Shown in pieces: positions 2,107 to 57,820 of a stretch of DNA of 58,460 nt. Position 1 is the stretch's first letter. The number at the start of each line of letters is the position of its first letter. The stretch lies in sequence record PP627280.1. The stretch is one strand, 5' to 3'. The notes under the pieces were generated by a model. It saw only the letters and a list, made by a program, of their open reading frames with translations, was not told the origin of the DNA and ran no database searches. Both the position numbers and the translations under genes were made by a program. This stretch comes from Escherichia phage SHIN8.

Positions 2107-3603
2107 ATGGGTATTGATGCAACTCACCCGCTATATGACAAGTGGAAGGACGCATGGGTTAAGTGCAACGACTGCTATGAGGGTGAAGATAAAATTAAGG
2201 AAGAAGGTGTTAAATATCTACCACCTTTAGCTTCCATGATTATTGATGGGATGAATAATCCTAATGATTTGGGCTTTCAACGTTGGCTCGCTTATCGTCT
2301 GCGTGCTAACTTCCCTGACGATTATTCAAGTGCGGTTACAAACAATTTAGGTCTGCTACACCAGAAGCCTCCTACAATCCAGCTCCCACCTGAAATGGAA
2401 TACATGCGGGAGCTGTGTACTGCGGACGGTGAAGACATTATTGCTCTGCTACGTCGCATCAATGAAATGCAGTTAAAAAATGGACGTTTGGGCCTGCTGC
2501 TGGACTTGCCGAAAGGTGAGGATGTAAATAACAGACCTTATATTAGCGTTTATGATGCTTTATCCATTATCAACTGGGATGATGGTAAAGATGAATTGGG
2601 CAATATCAACTTGAACATGGTTGTTCTGGATGAAAGCGGTCCTGTACGTGTCAATCAGTTTGACTGGAAAGAAGAGAAGCGTTATCGCGTTCTACAATTA
2701 GGTCCAATGGACACAGATGAAGTAGCAGGTGGAGCGGTCTACTCCCAACATCTGTTTATTAACAATACCAATTATGATGAAGGGCAAATGATTGCTCCTT
2801 ATTATAAAGGTAATACGCTGGATGAAATTCCTTTCCAGTTTGTCAATACAACAGATATTACCCCAGCACCGGAAGCGCCGCCATTGTTGGGTCTTGCTAA
2901 CATTTGTCTAAGCATGTACCGAAGTGACGCGGATTACCGCCAATGCTTGCATATGCAGGGTCAGGATACTTTAGTTGTTGTTGGTGGTTCCATGGAAAAT
3001 GGAGATAAAGCCCCTCAGCGTATTGGTCCTGGTGCAGTCATTAACGTTTCTCAGGGAGGTGACGCTAAATATGTAGGTGTTAGCGGTGACGGTTTGTCCG
3101 AGCAACGTCTCGCACTGGCAGCGGATAAGCAGGAAGCCCAAATTAAAGCCGGGCAAATGGTAAACAATACCAAGAGTACGCAGGAATCAGGCGAAGCTAT
3201 GAAAACGCGTATTGCTGCGCGTACAGCTAGTTTGATTCGAATTGCGTATACTGGTGCGGCTGGTTTGGAGAACTTGCTGAAGGTTTGCGCTAAGTGGATG
3301 GGTGCTGATCCCGAGAAAGTTGTGGTCAAGCCTAATCTTGAATTTACCAAGAGCATGTTTAACGGTCAGGACTTTGTTCAAATTATTACTGCACGCAACC
3401 TTAAAGCTCCGATCAGCTTGCAGTCTATTCATGGCTGGCTCGTTGATCAAGGCTTAACCACACTAAGCTTTGAAGAAGAAATGGCAATTCTTGAAGAAGA
3501 GCTTAAGAAGTGGCCTCTGCCCGATGATGCTAAAGCTGATTTAAACGCAGAGCAGCAAGTAAGTAAAGATCCTAAGGAAGACAACGCTTCCGATAAAGAA
3601 TAG
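2107..3603 (+). CDS. portal protein
   Basis: 498 aa, immediately after terL and before scaffold/capsid; acidic C-terminus. Confidence 0.7.
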   Translation: MGIDATHPLYDKWKDAWVKCNDCYEGEDKIKEEGVKYLPPLASMIIDGMNNPNDLGFQRWLAYRLRANFPDDYSSAVTNNLGLLHQKPPTIQLPPEMEYMRELCTADGEDIIALLRRINEMQLKNGRLGLLLDLPKGEDVNNRPYISVYDALSIINWDDGKDELGNINLNMVVLDESGPVRVNQFDWKEEKRYRVLQLGPMDTDEVAGGAVYSQHLFINNTNYDEGQMIAPYYKGNTLDEIPFQFVNTTDITPAPEAPPLLGLANICLSMYRSDADYRQCLHMQGQDTLVVVGGSMENGDKAPQRIGPGAVINVSQGGDAKYVGVSGDGLSEQRLALAADKQEAQIKAGQMVNNTKSTQESGEAMKTRIAARTASLIRIAYTGAAGLENLLKVCAKWMGADPEKVVVKPNLEFTKSMFNGQDFVQIITARNLKAPISLQSIHGWLVDQGLTTLSFEEEMAILEEELKKWPLPDDAKADLNAEQQVSKDPKEDNASDKE

Positions 3604-3698
3604 TTGCAACTTCCAAGTTGATCGGTTTATATTAACGAACACGGGGCTGGGACGGCTCAGCTCCAAAAACGTCACACGGGTGACAACGGAGATAAGAA

Positions 3699-4571
3699 AT
3701 GAAAAAGAGTTCTGTAGCTATTAGTGTTGGTATGGCTTTAATTAATCCACGCGCTCGCGGTGAAGGTGACGTGGAACTGGAATACGAATATGCATCTGCG
3801 GAAGAAATCCCGGCAGAGTTTGCAACTCTTTACGCAGAGCAGGGCGGTAAATACGTTCTTGCAAAAGTTAAAGGTGTAGCCCCCGCTGATAGCGTTCGTC
3901 GTCTGGAAAGTGCATTAGCAAAAGAACGTAACGACCATCGTCAGGTGAAGCAACAGATTAGCGCACTTGGGCGTCCGGTTGAAGAAGTCCTTGCGGACCT
4001 TGATCGTATCCCTCAACTGGAAGCTGCCGCTAACGGTAAAGGTACTCCGGAAGACATCGAAAAGATGGTTAAAGCCCGTCTTGCTCCGCTTGAGCGTCAA
4101 TTGCAAACTGTAGCAGCTGAACGCGATTCCGTTAAGCAGGAAATTGAAGGCTACCGCACTCGCGAAACTAAAGCGAAGATTAAAGACGCAGTTATTGCTG
4201 CTGCATCCGGTGCTAAGCTGCGTCCGTCTGCTATCGAAGATGCGGTGACTTATGCACAGTTGCAAATGACCGTCGACGAGAACGGCAATGTGGTTACGAA
4301 AGATGGGGCGGGTGTAACTCCATACCTAACCCCGGCGGATTGGCTTAACGAGATCCTCCCGAAACGTCCTCACTGGGTTGAAGGATCTGCTGGTGGTGGT
4401 GCATCTGGTCCGGGCGCTGGCGGACATCACGGCGAAGACCCTTACAGTCACGACGGTTGGAACATCTCTAAACAGATGAATCTCTGGAAAACTAATCAAT
4501 CTTTAGCTAAACGCTTAGCTGAAAAGAATGGCGTAGACCCGCTGAAGCCTGTACGTCCTGCTAAGAAATAA
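3699..4571 (+). CDS. head scaffolding protein
   Basis: 290 aa, charged and coiled-coil-like, between portal and major capsid. Confidence 0.55.
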   Translation: MKKSSVAISVGMALINPRARGEGDVELEYEYASAEEIPAEFATLYAEQGGKYVLAKVKGVAPADSVRRLESALAKERNDHRQVKQQISALGRPVEEVLADLDRIPQLEAAANGKGTPEDIEKMVKARLAPLERQLQTVAAERDSVKQEIEGYRTRETKAKIKDAVIAAASGAKLRPSAIEDAVTYAQLQMTVDENGNVVTKDGAGVTPYLTPADWLNEILPKRPHWVEGSAGGGASGPGAGGHHGEDPYSHDGWNISKQMNLWKTNQSLAKRLAEKNGVDPLKPVRPAKK

Positions 4572-52025: not shown

Positions 52026-52277
52026 ATGTGCGACTCCAGTGCAAGCGCTGCACCCAGCACCTCCAGCAATGTGGTTACAGAGGTAAATGCAATGCGATTA
52101 GGCCCATATCGCGGCTATTATGGTCGTGCAGCATGGAATGACGCTACTCAACGTTTTGAAGGCTGGATTATCTGTCCGGAACGTGTTAAATTTCACTCCG
52201 TAAAAGAGAAAAATATCGTTCTTAATTTTCAAAAATGTGTCACTAAATATGTAGAGGAGCAGGAAGAATGCGTGTAG
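52026..52277 (+). CDS. hypothetical protein
   Basis: 83 aa; AGGAGG RBS. Confidence 0.4.
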   Translation: MCDSSASAAPSTSSNVVTEVNAMRLGPYRGYYGRAAWNDATQRFEGWIICPERVKFHSVKEKNIVLNFQKCVTKYVEEQEECV

Positions 52278-52510
52278 AAGACGAGCAAAAGACAGTTGAC
52301 TACTTCGGAATGCAAATTGTTGTTCCGGAATGGGTTAAATGGCTTGCTGTCGATGGTGACGGCAAATTATTCGGTTATGAATGTGAGCCCGACATTTTAG
52401 TTAATGTAGATTGGGATAAATGGTACAGTGAAGAAGGTAAATGCCGCTGCATTACAGAAGTCATCCTTGAAGAAGAACATTGGTCACAAACCTTAGTGGA
52501 GCTTTTTTAA
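52268..52510 (+). CDS. hypothetical protein (paralogue of 52852-53148)
   Basis: 80 aa; shares VPEW..AVDGDGK..Y.CEP motif with 52852 ORF. Confidence 0.4.
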   Translation: MRVEDEQKTVDYFGMQIVVPEWVKWLAVDGDGKLFGYECEPDILVNVDWDKWYSEEGKCRCITEVILEEEHWSQTLVELF

Positions 52511-52851: not shown

Positions 52852-53148
52852 ATGCTGTATTTAGGGATGGACGAAACTGGACACGCGATTCCTTCCGTTA
52901 ACAAGGAGACGCAAGTATTTACCGACTATTACGGGTCTGCTGTCCCTGTTGAGCCCTGGGCTAACTTTATCGCTGTAGATGCAGACGGTAAAGTTCATTG
53001 TTATGACGCCAAACCTTCTTGCTATGAATCTGGTAAGCAATGGATGCTTGGCGTATACGGATTACATGTGCGCTACTGCGGTGAAGTTGACATTGAAGGT
53101 GTGGACTGGCGCGATACGTTGAAGGAGATTAAAGATGTCCGCGGCTGA
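52852..53148 (+). CDS. hypothetical protein (paralogue of 52268-52510)
   Basis: 98 aa; VPVEPWANFIAVDADGKVHCYDAKP. Confidence 0.4.
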   Translation: MLYLGMDETGHAIPSVNKETQVFTDYYGSAVPVEPWANFIAVDADGKVHCYDAKPSCYESGKQWMLGVYGLHVRYCGEVDIEGVDWRDTLKEIKDVRG

Positions 53149-53224: not shown

Positions 53225-53449
53225 ATGCGCTTACTCATGGTGTTAGGCGTTATACTTGCCGCTTTCGTTGTATTTGCAATTGTAGACTCTAAAGAAATGG
53301 AGCGGCAAAACTGCCAACGTACTGGTAACAGCCGTGAGGATATCATTTGGCAATATATTTACGATGCAAAAGGTAATGTTATGTCAATGTATCCTCAGGT
53401 TATTACTGAGTATGAATATAAATGCAATGACCGTAACAGGTGGAGATAA
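53225..53449 (+). CDS. small membrane-anchored protein
   Basis: 74 aa, N-terminal hydrophobic helix. Confidence 0.4.
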   Translation: MRLLMVLGVILAAFVVFAIVDSKEMERQNCQRTGNSREDIIWQYIYDAKGNVMSMYPQVITEYEYKCNDRNRWR

Positions 53450-53451
53450 TA

Positions 53452-53643
53452 ATGGATAGACTATCCGATGAGCGCGTTGCTAAGCTTGCAGAATATGACT
53501 GTGCAAGCAATGAGGAGGTTATGTTTTTAGCACAAGAGGTGAAGGAACTTCGAGCTGTAGCAAAGGACTTCCTGCGTCGTAATAAATATGGTCCTTTGTT
53601 CTATCGTGATTTGTATAACCGTTTTAAGGAGATTGTGAAATGA
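53452..53643 (+). CDS. hypothetical protein
   Basis: track ORF trimmed to ATG with GGAG RBS. Confidence 0.35.
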   Translation: MDRLSDERVAKLAEYDCASNEEVMFLAQEVKELRAVAKDFLRRNKYGPLFYRDLYNRFKEIVK

Positions 53644-53909
53644 TTACCGCTCAAGAAGCTCGTGAATTAAGCGATAAGCTGGATATTAGCGAAGATATTG
53701 AATTTATCAGTAACAGCATTCGCGTAGCTGCTACAAAGGGATACAATAAAGTATCACTGGTAACAAAATACGGCGCTGTTGGCAATCCTGACACTCAAGA
53801 CCCGACAACTATGAAGATTGCTAAATGGTTAGCTGATTCTGGTTTTACGGTGTTATATTATCCTTCAATGGACCAACGTGATAACGAGCGTACTGAGGTA
53901 GCATGGTGA
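53640..53909 (+). CDS. hypothetical protein
   Basis: 89-aa ORF. Confidence 0.4.
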   Translation: MITAQEARELSDKLDISEDIEFISNSIRVAATKGYNKVSLVTKYGAVGNPDTQDPTTMKIAKWLADSGFTVLYYPSMDQRDNERTEVAW

Positions 53910-53977
53910 TTGAAGAAAATATCAAATATTGGAAAGGCTTTATTGACGAAATGTTGAAACCATTGGAGAAGAAATAA
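53903..53977 (+). CDS. 24-aa micro-ORF translationally coupled on both sides
   Basis: ATGGTGA overlap with upstream stop and TAATG overlap with downstream start. Confidence 0.25.
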   Translation: MVIEENIKYWKGFIDEMLKPLEKK

Positions 53978-54369
53978 TGCTATTAGTCGTCACCGGAGGT
54001 CGAGATTTTAAGCATGTGGAGTATATTTACGCTCAATTGGATAAGCTGCATATGCAAAGAAGGATAACCACACTTCGCCACGGTGACGCTGACGGTGTTG
54101 ACCGGATTTGCGCACATTGGGCAGAGCGCAACGGTATTAAGACAGAAGCGTTCCCTGCCCCGTGGGACAATCTTTCCTTACCAAATACAAAGATACGGTA
54201 TAACGCCAAGGGTGCTTATAATGCACAAGCTGGCGCTTACCGCAATCAATTGATGCTGGATACTGATCCTAAACCAGATCACGCTATTGTATTTCCTGGC
54301 GGAGCTGGTACTATGGATATGTACAGACGGATTAAAGCATCCGGTATTCCTTACACTTTAGCGGAGTAA
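53977..54369 (+). CDS. Rossmann-fold nucleotide-binding protein (SLOG/DprA-like, putative)
   Basis: 130 aa; LVVTGGRDF, HGDADGVD, IVFPGGAGT glycine-rich motifs. Confidence 0.4.
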   Translation: MLLVVTGGRDFKHVEYIYAQLDKLHMQRRITTLRHGDADGVDRICAHWAERNGIKTEAFPAPWDNLSLPNTKIRYNAKGAYNAQAGAYRNQLMLDTDPKPDHAIVFPGGAGTMDMYRRIKASGIPYTLAE

Positions 54370-54372
54370 ATA

Positions 54373-54843
54373 ATGGCTGACGTTAAAACTATTGTTGATG
54401 TAATGGATGAGTCCAAAGACTGCCAACTGAAGAAGTCGTTTGAAGTAAAACAGGTTACAGAGACTCAGTTAGTCTGTAATTTTGCGCGTTATTGTGGACT
54501 GGGGCGCGGGAAAGACTGGAACGGGCTTATTGTTATGCCCACATCACAGATCCTCGTTTACGTCCGCAATATTGTAGAAGATCTTTTGCGTCTTCAAATA
54601 GATATTGGTGACGTAGAAATTAACATGACCGCGAGCTCTACCATTGTGGTTAAATGGCAGTCGGGCGAGACACTGCGTTTGGAAGCGTGCCATTGTGCTA
54701 AGAGCCTACACCACCTGCGCGGTTGTCATTACCAGTTCGTTGGGTTTGTACATCCGCAAGGGTTAAGCGAGCGTACGGCGCTGGTAGCGCGTTTGCTGCT
54801 GCGTCCTTATAATAACGAGCTGGAAGTTATATACGAGGCATAA
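54373..54843 (+). CDS. hypothetical protein with Cys/His cluster
   Basis: 156 aa; CHCAKSLHHLRGCH. Confidence 0.4.
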   Translation: MADVKTIVDVMDESKDCQLKKSFEVKQVTETQLVCNFARYCGLGRGKDWNGLIVMPTSQILVYVRNIVEDLLRLQIDIGDVEINMTASSTIVVKWQSGETLRLEACHCAKSLHHLRGCHYQFVGFVHPQGLSERTALVARLLLRPYNNELEVIYEA

Positions 54844-54844
54844 A

Positions 54845-55051
54845 ATGGAAACTCCATTAGCTAAACAAATGATAGAGCGTGCGGATCGGGACGGTTTACC
54901 GGAAGACCATGCTATGCGTCGAACCGCCCAAGTGTTTGACGAGATTAGCGTTAAATATGCTATGGGTAAGAGCACCCCTAAAGCCTTATTAGGTGCTTGG
55001 GCTCGCGCTCGACGCTGCTGGTGTAACTATACCGGAGAACAGCTTATATGA
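54845..55051 (+). CDS. hypothetical protein
   Basis: 68-aa ORF. Confidence 0.35.
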   Translation: METPLAKQMIERADRDGLPEDHAMRRTAQVFDEISVKYAMGKSTPKALLGAWARARRCWCNYTGEQLI

Positions 55052-55470
55052 TCAAACACGTTAAACAGCCAACGTTGAATACATGCGTTTCCGCGTGTTT
55101 GGCAATGATCCTTAATAAACCTGTTGAGACGGTTATTAAGGAATTTCACAGTCGTTATTATAACAACTGGGAAATCACTATCAGCGAATATTTGACTAAA
55201 AACGGCGTCCAGCATCATTGTTCAGAAGGTGGTGGGCGTGAAACTTTGCATATGGGAGGTTTGTTCCTGTGCACGGTGCCAAGTCTTAATATTCCTGGCG
55301 CATTGCACCAGATTGTGATTGATATGACGGATCACAAGTTTATTGTGCATGATCCAATTAAAGGATGGGAAGGTAAAAAGTTCTATGTTGGTCCGGATCA
55401 AGATCCTGAAGAGCCTGGAGCTTTTATCATTCATACTTGGGTCAAAGACGTTGAAATCCTGCTTTATTAA
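55048..55470 (+). CDS. papain-fold cysteine peptidase (C39-like domain, putative)
   Basis: 140 aa; QPTLNTCVSACLAMIL N-terminal Cys motif and HQIVIDMTDHKFIVHDP His motif. Confidence 0.45.
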   Translation: MIKHVKQPTLNTCVSACLAMILNKPVETVIKEFHSRYYNNWEITISEYLTKNGVQHHCSEGGGRETLHMGGLFLCTVPSLNIPGALHQIVIDMTDHKFIVHDPIKGWEGKKFYVGPDQDPEEPGAFIIHTWVKDVEILLY

Positions 55471-55500
55471 TTTTCTTGCTATCACATAACCCTTCATTGT

Positions 55501-55534
55501 ATTGTGTACCCATCGAATAAGAGGGGTACACAAT
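55501..55534 (+). promoter_or_regulatory. perfect 11-bp hairpin occluding RBS/start codon of downstream membrane-protein gene
   Basis: ATTGTGTACCC-12 nt-GGGTACACAAT; 3' arm includes the first two bases of the ATG at 55533. Confidence 0.4.
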
Positions 55535-55718
55535 GACCAAACTATACGCCGGATTGTTTTTATTTGCGACGTTGATGTTCGCTGGGCTTTATACCTATAC
55601 AGTAGTCGAACAACCTTCCACGGTTATCCGAATCTTTGCAAGTACAGGGCTTTGCATCTGTCTTATTCTATTTGTTTTATGCATTGTTATTATCCAAGAC
55701 CAAAGGAAAGTTAAATGA
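55533..55718 (+). CDS. small two-helix membrane protein
   Basis: 61 aa, two hydrophobic segments. Confidence 0.45.
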   Translation: MTKLYAGLFLFATLMFAGLYTYTVVEQPSTVIRIFASTGLCICLILFVLCIVIIQDQRKVK

Positions 55719-56179
55719 CCACAATTGCGTTTGATGGAAAAGTATTAGCTGCGGACCGTGGAGTTATGCGCGGGGAAGCTGTGACTGCTTATAAGAAAGT
55801 TCATAGCGTGAATGGACATCGTGGACGGTTTTTACTGGGCTTGTGCGGTTTGACGGCATTTACCGATCAGGTGTTGCGTTATTTTAATAGCGCGGAACCT
55901 GTTAAGTTCCCTGATATTAAACTTTACAGTAAAGATGATGATTACGGGCAAACTTGCGGTCTTGCTGTCACTCCGGAAGGTACTTGCCATTTTATTTATA
56001 ATGATGGTACTTTGAGTGAGCCCATGCTGGATGGATGGGGATCTGAGGGTAGCGGTTGTGTGTTTGCTGCTGGTGCATTAGCTGCTGGTGCAAGTGCGAG
56101 CGAAGCTATTGAGCTGGCAATTAAACACACCACATGTGCATTCCTGGGAGTTGATACAATATCGTTTGAGGGTTTTTAA
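55715..56179 (+). CDS. HslV-like Ntn-hydrolase (proteasome beta-subunit-like peptidase, putative)
   Basis: 154 aa; N-terminal MTTIAF (Thr after Met), KKV, GLCGLTAFTDQVLRYF and GSEGSG segments parallel HslV. Confidence 0.5.
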   Translation: MTTIAFDGKVLAADRGVMRGEAVTAYKKVHSVNGHRGRFLLGLCGLTAFTDQVLRYFNSAEPVKFPDIKLYSKDDDYGQTCGLAVTPEGTCHFIYNDGTLSEPMLDGWGSEGSGCVFAAGALAAGASASEAIELAIKHTTCAFLGVDTISFEGF

Positions 56180-56180
56180 A

Positions 56181-56672
56181 ATGGAATGGTCTTCCATATT
56201 CACTTATTTGGATGGAAAGCTGTTCTGGAAAACTTCTAGAGGCGGTAGAGTTATACCAGGAGCACTTGCTGGTCATGCTACAAAGAGGGGTTACGTCAAA
56301 ATACGATGCGGTTGTAGTTTCTATCTAAGGCATCGCATAGTATGGGAAATGCATAATGGGTCCATTCCCGAAAATATGCAAATAGATCATATTAATCACG
56401 TTCCTGGAGATGATAGGATAGAGAATCTTAGATTAGTTACAAGTACATTAAATAATAGGAACGTAACCAGATCTAAGCTTAATAAGTCTGGTGTTACTGG
56501 TGTTTGCTATCACAAAAGAAATAAAAGATGGATAGCTTATATTAATACACAGGTCGGTCAAGTAAGACTTGGCTCTTTTATTAATTTTGAAGATGCTGTC
56601 AATGCTCGTAAAAATGCTGAGATTGTATATGAATACCACGAGAATCATGGAACTGAACGTAAGAGTTTTTGA
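56181..56672 (+). CDS. HNH homing endonuclease with AP2-like domain
   Basis: track ORF trimmed to ATG 56181; HRIVW...IDHINHVPGDDRIENLR HNH_3-type motif. Confidence 0.65.
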   Translation: MEWSSIFTYLDGKLFWKTSRGGRVIPGALAGHATKRGYVKIRCGCSFYLRHRIVWEMHNGSIPENMQIDHINHVPGDDRIENLRLVTSTLNNRNVTRSKLNKSGVTGVCYHKRNKRWIAYINTQVGQVRLGSFINFEDAVNARKNAEIVYEYHENHGTERKSF

Positions 56673-56916
56673 TGTTTTACCTTCACAATTAAACTGGAGG
56701 ATAAAAGATTTTTATAACTATGTCCAAGTGAACGATGATATTTTCTTCACTGATTGTGAGGAGGTAGCTATTGCGATTATTGATAGTCTGCAAACTAATG
56801 GCCTTGTTATCTTTTGGGATGGGGTTAACGATTACTCAGTATATTCAGAAAAGTATCTTGGCGAAGGGAACTCATTATTCGCTAAGTCCTGCGTTCTGGC
56901 ATTCCTTAATAGATAA
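56647..56916 (+). CDS. hypothetical protein
   Basis: internal ATG of track ORF 56569-56916; start uncertain. Confidence 0.3.
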   Translation: MELNVRVFDVLPSQLNWRIKDFYNYVQVNDDIFFTDCEEVAIAIIDSLQTNGLVIFWDGVNDYSVYSEKYLGEGNSLFAKSCVLAFLNR

Positions 56917-57001
56917 TCCGTCATATCCAATTCAGCTTGCTCCTCTTGATCAAAGCCTGTTAATATTATCAAGCCTAAATCAAGCGGAGGAGGCTTTATC
57001 T

Positions 57002-57439
57002 ATGGCACTTCAACCTCGTGGTATTCGTAATAACAATCCAGGCAATATTCGCTGGGGTGATAATTGGCAGGGCTTAGTTCCTGCTGATAAGCGAACCGAT
57101 AAATCTTTTGCTCAATTCACGCAACCGATTTACGGCATTCGTGCGCTAGCGAAAATCCTGACAAACTACACCAAACGTGAAGGCTTGCCCAATGTGGGTA
57201 AGAAAAACATCGACACTGTACGTGAAATTATCGCTCGCTGGGCACCGCCTAACGAAAACGATACGGAAGCGTATATTCGCTCTGTTGCCAAAGCAATTGG
57301 TGTTCAACCTAACGATCCAATTAATGTCTTCGACAAGGCAATTATGTCAGGATTGGTGAAAGCAATCATTCGTCATGAAAATGGCATGATGCCCTATACC
57401 GATGACGTAATTAACCGCGCTATTGCAATGGTACTTTAA
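57002..57439 (+). CDS. endolysin (putative peptidoglycan hydrolase)
   Basis: track ORF trimmed to ATG 57002 with GGAGGAGG RBS; conserved GIRNNNPGNIRW segment; directly upstream of holin and spanins. Confidence 0.5.
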   Translation: MALQPRGIRNNNPGNIRWGDNWQGLVPADKRTDKSFAQFTQPIYGIRALAKILTNYTKREGLPNVGKKNIDTVREIIARWAPPNENDTEAYIRSVAKAIGVQPNDPINVFDKAIMSGLVKAIIRHENGMMPYTDDVINRAIAMVL

Positions 57440-57443
57440 CTGA

Positions 57444-57466
57444 CGGGGCGTTAGCCCCTTTTATTT
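57444..57466 (+). terminator. putative intrinsic terminator between endolysin and holin
   Basis: GGGGC-gtta-GCCCC followed by TTTTATTT. Confidence 0.4.
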
Positions 57467-57475
57467 GGAGGGAAC

Positions 57476-57820
57476 ATGTTCAATTCACCCAACGAACATT
57501 GGGCAGTTCTAGCGGGGTTTGCGTTTATCTCCCTCATTGGGGGAGCTCTCGGTTATGTCATGCGTACAATAGACGCTGGTAAGAAAGTACGGGCAAGTAT
57601 TGCGTTTCTTGAAGGCTTATCCGCCGCTTTCTTTGGCGTTATAATGTATGCGATCTACAGGGAGTTTAACATCAGCCTTTGGTTCGCTTTTGGCCTTGCT
57701 GGCCTATTTGCTTGGGCAGGTTCACGTGCTACGCTAAAAGCCCTAACGTCGCTTATAGCTTCACGGACAGGGATCAAACTCGATTCAGGGGACTGCAAAC
57801 ATGAAAACGATTCTAAATAA
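57476..57820 (+). CDS. holin
   Basis: 114 aa, three hydrophobic helices, charged C-terminus; GGAGGG RBS. Confidence 0.55.
   Translation: MFNSPNEHWAVLAGFAFISLIGGALGYVMRTIDAGKKVRASIAFLEGLSAAFFGVIMYAIYREFNISLWFAFGLAGLFAWAGSRATLKALTSLIASRTGIKLDSGDCKHENDSK

Follow-up and report, generated by a model that had tools for sequence, protein, structure and literature searches.

What do two different peptidase folds do next to a nucleotide-binding protein, just ahead of the lysis genes of a siphophage? The question is raised by six genes of Escherichia phage SHIN8 (sequence record PP627280.1; the whole stretch of 58,460 nucleotides is the window analysed here), which we call ORF1 to ORF6 (Table 1). An earlier note, made from the letters alone, had seen in them a host-manipulation or counter-defence module. 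Our analysis of profiles, models and homologs shows a conserved accessory block in the rightward pre-lysis operon, the core of which is a pair of predicted active hydrolases, a C39-like cysteine peptidase (C39L, ORF4) and a phage proteasome homolog (PPH, ORF6). C39L and PPH are the constant members, and the SLOG protein (ORF1) is a frequent third; the idea of a module finds support for these three genes out of six. We favour, at a probability of about 0.4, a functional proteolysis unit of SLOG, C39L and PPH, which would most likely serve host manipulation or counter-defence.

The evidence that the genes belong together comes from an association screen, in which hidden Markov models were run over 21 fetched loci and 108 IMG/VR loci, with a partner window of 4 kb in IMG/VR. 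C39L is followed by PPH, directly or with one to two small genes between them, in seven lineages (Seuratvirus, STP-SP5, yong3, Nonagvirus HdK1, Enterobacter EC151, Providencia PSTCR7 and Pantoea Vid5), always upstream of endolysin/holin and terS/terL genes, and the pair proteins share 27-40% identity across lineages. SLOG joins the pair in three of the seven lineages and does so in three gene orders: SLOG, TerL-like gene, ORF3, C39L, transmembrane (TM) protein and PPH in Seuratvirus; SLOG, C39L and PPH with overlapping genes in PSTCR7; and C39L, SLOG and PPH with 4-nt overlaps in Vid5. The proposal of a single module therefore stands in part: SLOG, C39L and PPH recur as an overlapping trio in PSTCR7 and Vid5; ORF2, ORF3 and ORF5 are lineage-specific and SLOG is not constant. 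That the cluster is kept despite shuffled order, and that its reading frames overlap, favours a functional unit over passive synteny.

The six genes lie exactly where the earlier note had placed them upstream of the lysis cassette, co-oriented and tightly packed, with overlaps or gaps of at most 3 nt apart from a single gap of 62 nt. All six are real genes under strong purifying selection, since the ratios of nonsynonymous to synonymous divergence (dN/dS) against phage PLYYY01, at a dS of 0.16-0.53, lie between 0.007 and 0.08 (ORF1 0.007, ORF2 0.080, ORF3 0.073, ORF4 0.078, ORF5 0.046 and ORF6 0.018). ORF1 and ORF6 are under tighter constraint than the endolysin, which served as the comparison gene (0.082).

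Table 1. Features of the six-gene block of phage SHIN8, with positions in the window and the basis of each assignment.
Feature	Position	Strand	Basis
ORF1, predicted YspA-type SLOG protein, 130 aa	53977-54369	+	Pfam PF10686, phrog_289
ORF2, truncated Walker-less TerL ATPase paralog, 156 aa	54373-54843	+	hhalign/BLASTP vs TerL, structure
ORF3, soluble 68-aa protein	54845-55051	+	phrog_27185
ORF4, predicted standalone papain-fold (clan CA) C39-like cysteine peptidase (C39L), 140 aa	55048-55470	+	model, invariant residues
Intergenic leader, 62 nt, hairpin 55500-55535	55471-55532	+	RNA folding, conservation
ORF5, 61-aa protein, two TM segments	55533-55718	+	hydropathy, phrog_22841
ORF6, predicted PPH-type N-terminal-Thr hydrolase (proteasome-beta/HslV-like), 154 aa	55715-56179	+	phrog_1040, profile

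The AlphaFold2 model of ORF4 is confident (pLDDT 93.3, pTM 0.89), and the papain-like fold with a Gln/Cys/His/Asp catalytic arrangement is borne out: Q7, C13, H87 and D102 do not vary among 17 homologs with identities as low as 25%. This set, a papain-type oxyanion Gln with Cys/His/Asp, argues for a predicted active enzyme, and in the model ORF4 appears structurally closest to C39 double-glycine peptidase domains. By sequence we do not file it as a C39 member, because its score against Pfam C39 (PF03412) is 13.8 bits, below the cutoff of 22 and over residues 3-24 only, and because neither the 14-member nor the 17-member C39L profile found a C39 chain in the PDB. The best Pfam C39 E-value among 14 family members is 0.005, and the single-sequence search of the PDB with ORF4 gave nothing meaningful. 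The C39 domains of bacteriocin and peptide ABC exporters (PCAT1, ComA and LahT) are transporter-borne, whereas ORF4 is a standalone protein. No transporter lies near the C39L gene in SHIN8 or in 14 other phage loci, the leader motifs of the neighbours being judged by eye only; the same inspection by eye found no convincing double-glycine leader in ORF3 or ORF5. The family is phrog_4049, listed in PHROGs without function and present in 196 phage records (Ackermannviridae, Pseudomonas phages, Vibrio cholerae podophages and Erwinia phages); it can now carry the label of a putative cysteine peptidase with a defined catalytic tetrad. In Shigella phage Ag3 (Ackermannviridae), the C39L gene (locus 2989-3435) is flanked by, and overlaps, the genes for both the large and the medium topoisomerase II subunit, and in MiCath, K251 g3 and AL-2 it is close to a DNA ligase gene.

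ORF6 matches phrog_1040, 'peptidase HslV family', at E 5.4e-32. Its 18-homolog profile finds HslV (E 3.2e-8), BPH (3.8e-7) and also proteasome beta subunits, and Pfam Proteasome (PF00227) matches 11 of the 18 family members with a best E of 4e-7; ORF6 alone misses the gathering score of that family (15.4 vs 22.4 bits), and its single-sequence search of the PDB gave nothing meaningful. M1, T2, D14, G45 and G112 are invariant in the 18 diverse homologs, K28, the counterpart of HslV K33 in the alignment, is found in nearly every member, and the G42/G45 motif is kept. Since ORF6 begins Met-Thr with no propeptide, Thr1 would be exposed by Met removal alone. The calls of a C39-like fold for ORF4 and of an HslV-like Ntn hydrolase for ORF6, which the earlier note had offered for checking by profile and structure, are both upheld, with Thr1/Asp/Lys kept in ORF6 and catalytic residues invariant across diverse homologs in each family.

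ORF6 probably belongs to PPH, which was described in 2021 and termed the first truly viral member of the proteasome family (Fuchs et al., PMC8665760). As described there, PPH is encoded by tailed phages, is compact at about 140 aa and lacks H2 and the C-terminal S12/H5. ORF6 has 154 aa and may be likewise compact; it has the Met-Thr start and equivalents of Thr1/Asp17/Lys33/Gly47, and its alignment with HslV has a gap at the segment that we place, on the basis of the alignment only, as HslV helix H2 (ELAKEWRTD...). The passages searched in that source do not mention a pairing of PPH with a C39-like peptidase and SLOG, and our literature search found no functional study of PPH.

ORF1 scores 65.2 bits against Pfam PF10686 (YAcAr; the YspA, cpYpsA-related SLOG family), with a gathering cutoff of 28.2, and matches phrog_289 at E 2.7e-23. 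The VxGGR, GxAxGxD and FPGGxGT motifs are invariant in five diverse homologs of 38-50% identity (G7, G8, R9, G36, G40, D42 and F106-P-G-G-x-G-T112), which confirms the Rossmann/SLOG-like reading of this gene. ORF1 shares the glycine-rich SLOG motifs of the YspA family, of which it is a clear Pfam member, and it is predicted to be a standalone, single-domain, nucleotide-binding SLOG protein. The SLOG superfamily also takes in the ligand-sensing domain of Thoeris ThsA and the LOG nucleotide hydrolases; unlike these, ORF1 is a single domain without a fused effector. A tblastn search finds relatives in 787 phage records, and their public labels, assigned by annotation alone, vary ('GTP-binding domain', 'DprA-like' and 'phosphoribosyl transferase'). 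A single-sequence search of the PDB with ORF1 gave no meaningful match and no solved relative by sequence. The sole PDB match of the SLOG profile was P1 DarA ('defense against restriction protein A') at FPGGxGT; with an E of 0.44 the match is not significant, and it is a possible lead given the anti-restriction role of DarA. The SLOG protein of PSTCR7, gp57 (locus 2989-3504), has a 60-residue N-terminal extension with CxxC...CxxC spacing, which is zinc-ribbon-like and is not found in the Seuratvirus or Vid5 SLOG proteins.

How might the three proteins work together? The catalytic sets of both enzymes are complete, so the activity most naturally expected of them in the infected cell would be proteolysis or deconjugation. 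We propose that SLOG, C39L and PPH would form a small unit for proteolysis in the cytoplasm of the infected cell and work in concert in the following way. First, C39L would cut site-specifically after small residues, like C39 peptidases and the structurally related Josephin/UfSP deconjugating enzymes. Second, PPH would form an HslV-like ring and degrade or process the C39L product, possibly with borrowed host HslU. Third, SLOG would bind a nucleotide-derived ligand that tunes or targets the activity, and a hairpin in the leader between ORF4 and ORF5 would hold PPH expression low. The most likely purpose would be host manipulation or counter-defence, not virion assembly. We tilt toward this purpose because C39L and SLOG elsewhere occur in accessory or anti-restriction-like neighbourhoods: outside the clade, their homologs lie in early regions with methyltransferases, Mom, ParB, a pentapeptide-repeat protein and Gam, and the nearest non-Seurat relatives of ORF1 overlap DNA methyltransferase genes. 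Solitary C39L genes are placed among genes of replication and recombination or of DNA modification, with ligase, RusA, RNase H, Gam, helicase, methyltransferases and Mom as neighbours.

The component superfamilies are already known, as is the family of ORF6. The apparent novelties are the conserved association, the assignment of phrog_4049 as a peptidase, the Walker-less TerL paralog and an ultraconserved translational leader. The pairing of PPH with a papain-fold peptidase and a recurrent SLOG protein turns an orphan family into a testable three-gene hypothesis, and the BASEL isolates of Seuratvirus and Nonagvirus carry such genes, grow on E. coli K-12 and are publicly available. If none of the readings discussed here holds, the region is a well-annotated accessory block.

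Several observations weigh against a functional proteolysis unit. SLOG is missing beside the pair in four of the seven lineages. Neither C39L nor PPH needs the other in general, because 77 of the 80 PPH loci and 19 of the 28 C39L loci in IMG/VR have no partner within 4 kb. Solitary PPH genes come after capsid or tail genes or lie in a nin-like early region, and some PPH homologs are found in structural modules. A lysis-related role would account equally well for the constant location beside the lysis cassette and for PPH being coupled to a membrane mini-protein. C39-like folds also cover amidases and transferases that are not proteases. The six block proteins gave zero matches to PADLOC and NCBIfam models, and none matched a known defence or anti-defence family in PADLOC. 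KpAvs2 and type III restriction-modification still act against Seuratviruses (PMC11564622, PMC8594841). Finally, adjacency could be inherited synteny, because all pair carriers, PSTCR7 and Vid5 included, are related PolB-type, 7-deazaguanine siphophages (PMC6266253). This shared ancestry weakens the functional-unit argument, and it is the reason why we put the unit no higher than we do and give pure synteny real weight as well.

Pure synteny, although we consider it unlikely, is thus the alternative that survives best. It holds that there is no functional unit and that the six genes are independent accessory 'morons' with unrelated jobs, neighbours through shared inheritance in one clade. The common ancestry and the deazaguanine gene set of all pair carriers speak for it, and each family is indeed widespread alone (PPH in 59 phage records, beside the larger numbers given above for SLOG and C39L), as the solitary loci also show. 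SLOG, ORF2, ORF3 and ORF5 have been gained or lost between lineages, and homing endonucleases sit at varied points within the block, that is, interruption is tolerated. However, the adjacency of C39L and PPH survives to the low identity seen across lineages while the intervening and flanking genes change, and SLOG stands on either side of C39L in PSTCR7 and Vid5 with 4-nt overlaps, an arrangement that is hard to obtain from passive synteny.

A late-stage role, which we regard as improbable, would have the peptidase pair act on a lysis or virion protein by processing or degrading it, for instance to set holin/antiholin timing at the membrane or to mature a structural protein. The block abuts endolysin/holin/spanin genes and then terS/terL in all seven lineages; SHIN8 and Seurat have no terminator-like site between the block and the endolysin, the first being at 57445, past the endolysin; and PPH appears translationally coupled to the two-TM mini-protein in Seuratviruses. 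The PPH homologs that follow capsid or tail genes and the terminase descent of ORF2 point the same way. Outside the clade, however, C39L keeps company with replication and recombination genes (topoisomerase II, ligase, RusA, RNase H, Gam and helicase), and the TM mini-protein is absent from yong3, Nonagvirus, EC151, PSTCR7 and Vid5. As for virion maturation, the large head-region ORFs that were scanned include no canonical prohead protease, and a scaffold and a major capsid protein are present. This gap would leave room for PPH or C39L in that function, but phages with a separate scaffold often need no prohead protease. We judge PPH or C39L as the prohead protease unlikely: a separate scaffold protein exists, and both genes lie outside the head module. 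In the account of the Vid5 virion proteomics given in the text of the paper, 11 proteins are named and proteases or peptidases go unmentioned (PMC6266253).

The substrates might also be small molecules or linked to nucleic acids, and we find this just as hard to credit as a late-stage role. SLOG would then be a LOG-like nucleotide-processing enzyme and C39L an amidase or transferase (cf. BtrH and phytochelatin synthase), tied to DNA metabolism or 7-deazaguanine modification. Every phage with the adjacent pair is in the deazaguanine-modifying group, and the overlap of the closest SLOG homologs with DNA methyltransferase genes fits this idea, as does the position of C39L homologs beside topoisomerase, ligase, RusA, RNase H and methyltransferase genes. 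SLOG also retains a LOG-like PGGxGT, but it reads PGGAGTMDM and is thus without the Glu of the LOG motif, which we take to be PGGxGTxxE. Moreover, Vibrio Queuovirinae phage AL-2 carries C39L without PPH, C39L and SLOG are abundant in phages not known as guanine modifiers (Ackermannviridae and mycobacteriophages), and the full proteasome catalytic set of PPH argues for a peptide substrate.

The remaining alternative involves ORF2, which is our second lead, as it bears on how phages coexist with terminase-sensing immunity (Avs1-3 and Upx) or on the regulation of packaging. The earlier note had called it a Cys/His-cluster protein. C41, C106, C108, H114 and H127 are indeed invariant in the family, but this description missed the identity of ORF2 as a TerL ATPase paralog; the statement that none of the six genes has an obvious role in virion morphogenesis is, for this gene, inaccurate by ancestry. 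Both the fold of the TerL ATPase domain and the homology to it are borne out, the link being drawn solely from structure and direct comparison with SHIN8's own TerL. The ORF2 profile aligns with residues 44-137 of that TerL (hhalign E 1.2e-5), and nine of nine family members match the same region by BLASTP (E 3.7e-8 to 3e-3). Because the alignment opens at ORF2 T29, equivalent to TerL T44, the final residue of Walker A (G37TRGPGKT44), ORF2 has no P-loop, and none lies upstream of T29. At Walker B, TerL FIGWNE aligns with ORF2 FVGFVH, and the Lys of 'GRGK' in ORF2 is not conserved across the family. Of the ATPase domain, ORF2 covers only the stretch that directly follows the P-loop and ends shortly beyond Walker B. 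We read it as a truncated paralog of the N-terminal subdomain of the large-terminase ATPase, predicted to be catalytically dead. The family is restricted to Seurat-like phages (two clusters in an exhaustive search of 1.84 billion representatives), and its profile had no match in the PDB. A kinship of ORF2 with the PSTCR7 gene upstream of C39L was considered and rejected, as that gene is SLOG.

The nearest precedent for ORF2 is T4 vs.8, a small phage protein that is likewise homologous to the ATPase domain of its own TerL and is a terminase-ATPase-like activator of EcAvs2 (bioRxiv 10.64898/2026.04.30.721860); vs.8 keeps Walker A and B, whereas ORF2 has lost both. KpAvs2 senses Seuratvirus TerL and still defends against Seuratviruses, and when every protein of Seuratvirus Bas22 was run against KpAvs2 in AlphaFold-Multimer, TerL alone was flagged (PMC11564622). 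For both reasons an anti-Avs2 decoy role for ORF2 is unlikely, and its candidacy as an Avs2 trigger is weakened as well. Avs2 and Avs3 read the Walker site and the bound ATP, which are missing in ORF2, and this further weakens the Avs2 link. It is possible that ORF2 is a packaging regulator, or a mimic aimed at other terminase sensors. Upx is predicted to need no active site for binding, its target being unfolded ATPase beta-strands. A joint reading, which we think very doubtful, would make SLOG, C39L and PPH a three-part nucleotide-responsive viral 'deconjugase plus mini-proteasome', in which C39L (C39/Josephin-like) would cut either a defence protein of the host or a ubiquitin-like conjugate, such as those that Bil or type II CBASS place on phage proteins, the product would be destroyed by PPH, and a nucleotide signal arising from defence would be sensed or soaked up by SLOG. 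In the same reading, but separately, ORF2 would be a Walker-less terminase mimic that shields TerL from, or diverts, terminase-sensing immunity such as Upx.

Between C39L and PPH, the leader and ORF5 suggest how PPH expression may be controlled in the proteolysis unit that we favour. ORF5 was described as a two-helix membrane protein with a hairpin-occluded start, and this description holds: hydropathy gives hydrophobic segments at residues 7-25 and 36-54, and the 12-14-bp stem of the leader hairpin pairs the Shine-Dalgarno sequence and AUG of ORF5, with an energy of -20.1 kcal/mol (z = -3.4; none of 200 shuffled sequences reached this stability). ORF5 matches phrog_22841 at E 5e-45. Its stop overlaps the PPH start (ATGA), and this implies likely translational coupling, through which the hairpin would throttle translation of ORF5 and also of PPH. 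The leader is 96.8% identical to that of Salmonella phage STP-SP5, while the flanking genes are merely 59-74% identical. In Hafnia phage yong3 both stem arms are kept, the loop differs and the downstream ORF is a different, non-membrane one. An intrinsic terminator was rejected, as there is no U-tract and the terminator scan did not flag the hairpin, and so was a repeated promoter or operator, as the leader is unique within the SHIN8 genome. Rfam gave no match over 53400-57600. ORF5 is kept in STP-SP5, and yong3 has a 61-aa non-TM ORF in its place; ORF3, which matches phrog_27185 at E 1e-16, is variable and absent from phage Seurat and yong3. In HdK1 (locus 3924-4277) and yong3 (locus 3402-3776), a gene for a protein of about 120 aa lies between C39L and PPH and replaces the Seuratvirus membrane mini-protein; the two proteins share a C-terminal helix-turn-helix-like segment (weak Pfam HTH_7, E 0.09).

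SHIN8 is an E. coli siphophage of the genus Seuratvirus (Queuovirinae). Its region 53400-57500 matches SLUR76 and SLUR26 at 97.5% identity, and slur01, Seurat, CAjan and several BASEL isolates at 93-98%; in these records the block genes mostly carry the label 'hypothetical protein'. According to GC skew and the ORF map, the rightward operon begins at about 51.5 kb with around 25 small genes, followed by the block. On the 3' side come an HNH gene, the endolysin, a LydA-type holin and spanins including a LysC-type spanin, and the operon runs on into terS (1-558), terL (536-2095), portal, scaffold and capsid genes at the start of the SHIN8 record. A terminator-like hairpin, GGGGCGTTAGCCCC, followed by a T-run lies at 57440-57465 between endolysin and holin, where the annotation of phage Seurat also places a terminator; the accessory block may thus be transcribed together with the endolysin, as a unit apart from holin, spanins and terminase.

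The HNH_3 homing endonuclease gene (56181-56672) starts 2 nt past the PPH stop codon; it is kept in SLUR76 and SLUR26 and absent from Seurat, CAjan and others. Kindred HNH genes occur elsewhere in the block, in STP-SP5 between ORF3 and C39L (locus 2847-3350) and in Nonagvirus HdK1 (locus 2237-2716), which makes the block look like a homing-endonuclease hot spot. On the 5' side, a 24-codon ORF, MVIEENIKYWKGFIDEMLKPLEKK, at 53903-53977 joins an upstream 89-aa gene to ORF1: its start codon (ATG) shares bases with the stop of that gene, as does its TAA with the ORF1 ATG (TAATG), and the STP-SP5 annotation has a 31-aa gene in this place. Further upstream, the small ORFs at 52268-52510 and 52852-53148 both match phrog_1972 (E 6e-22 and 9e-28), which suggests a duplicated small gene.

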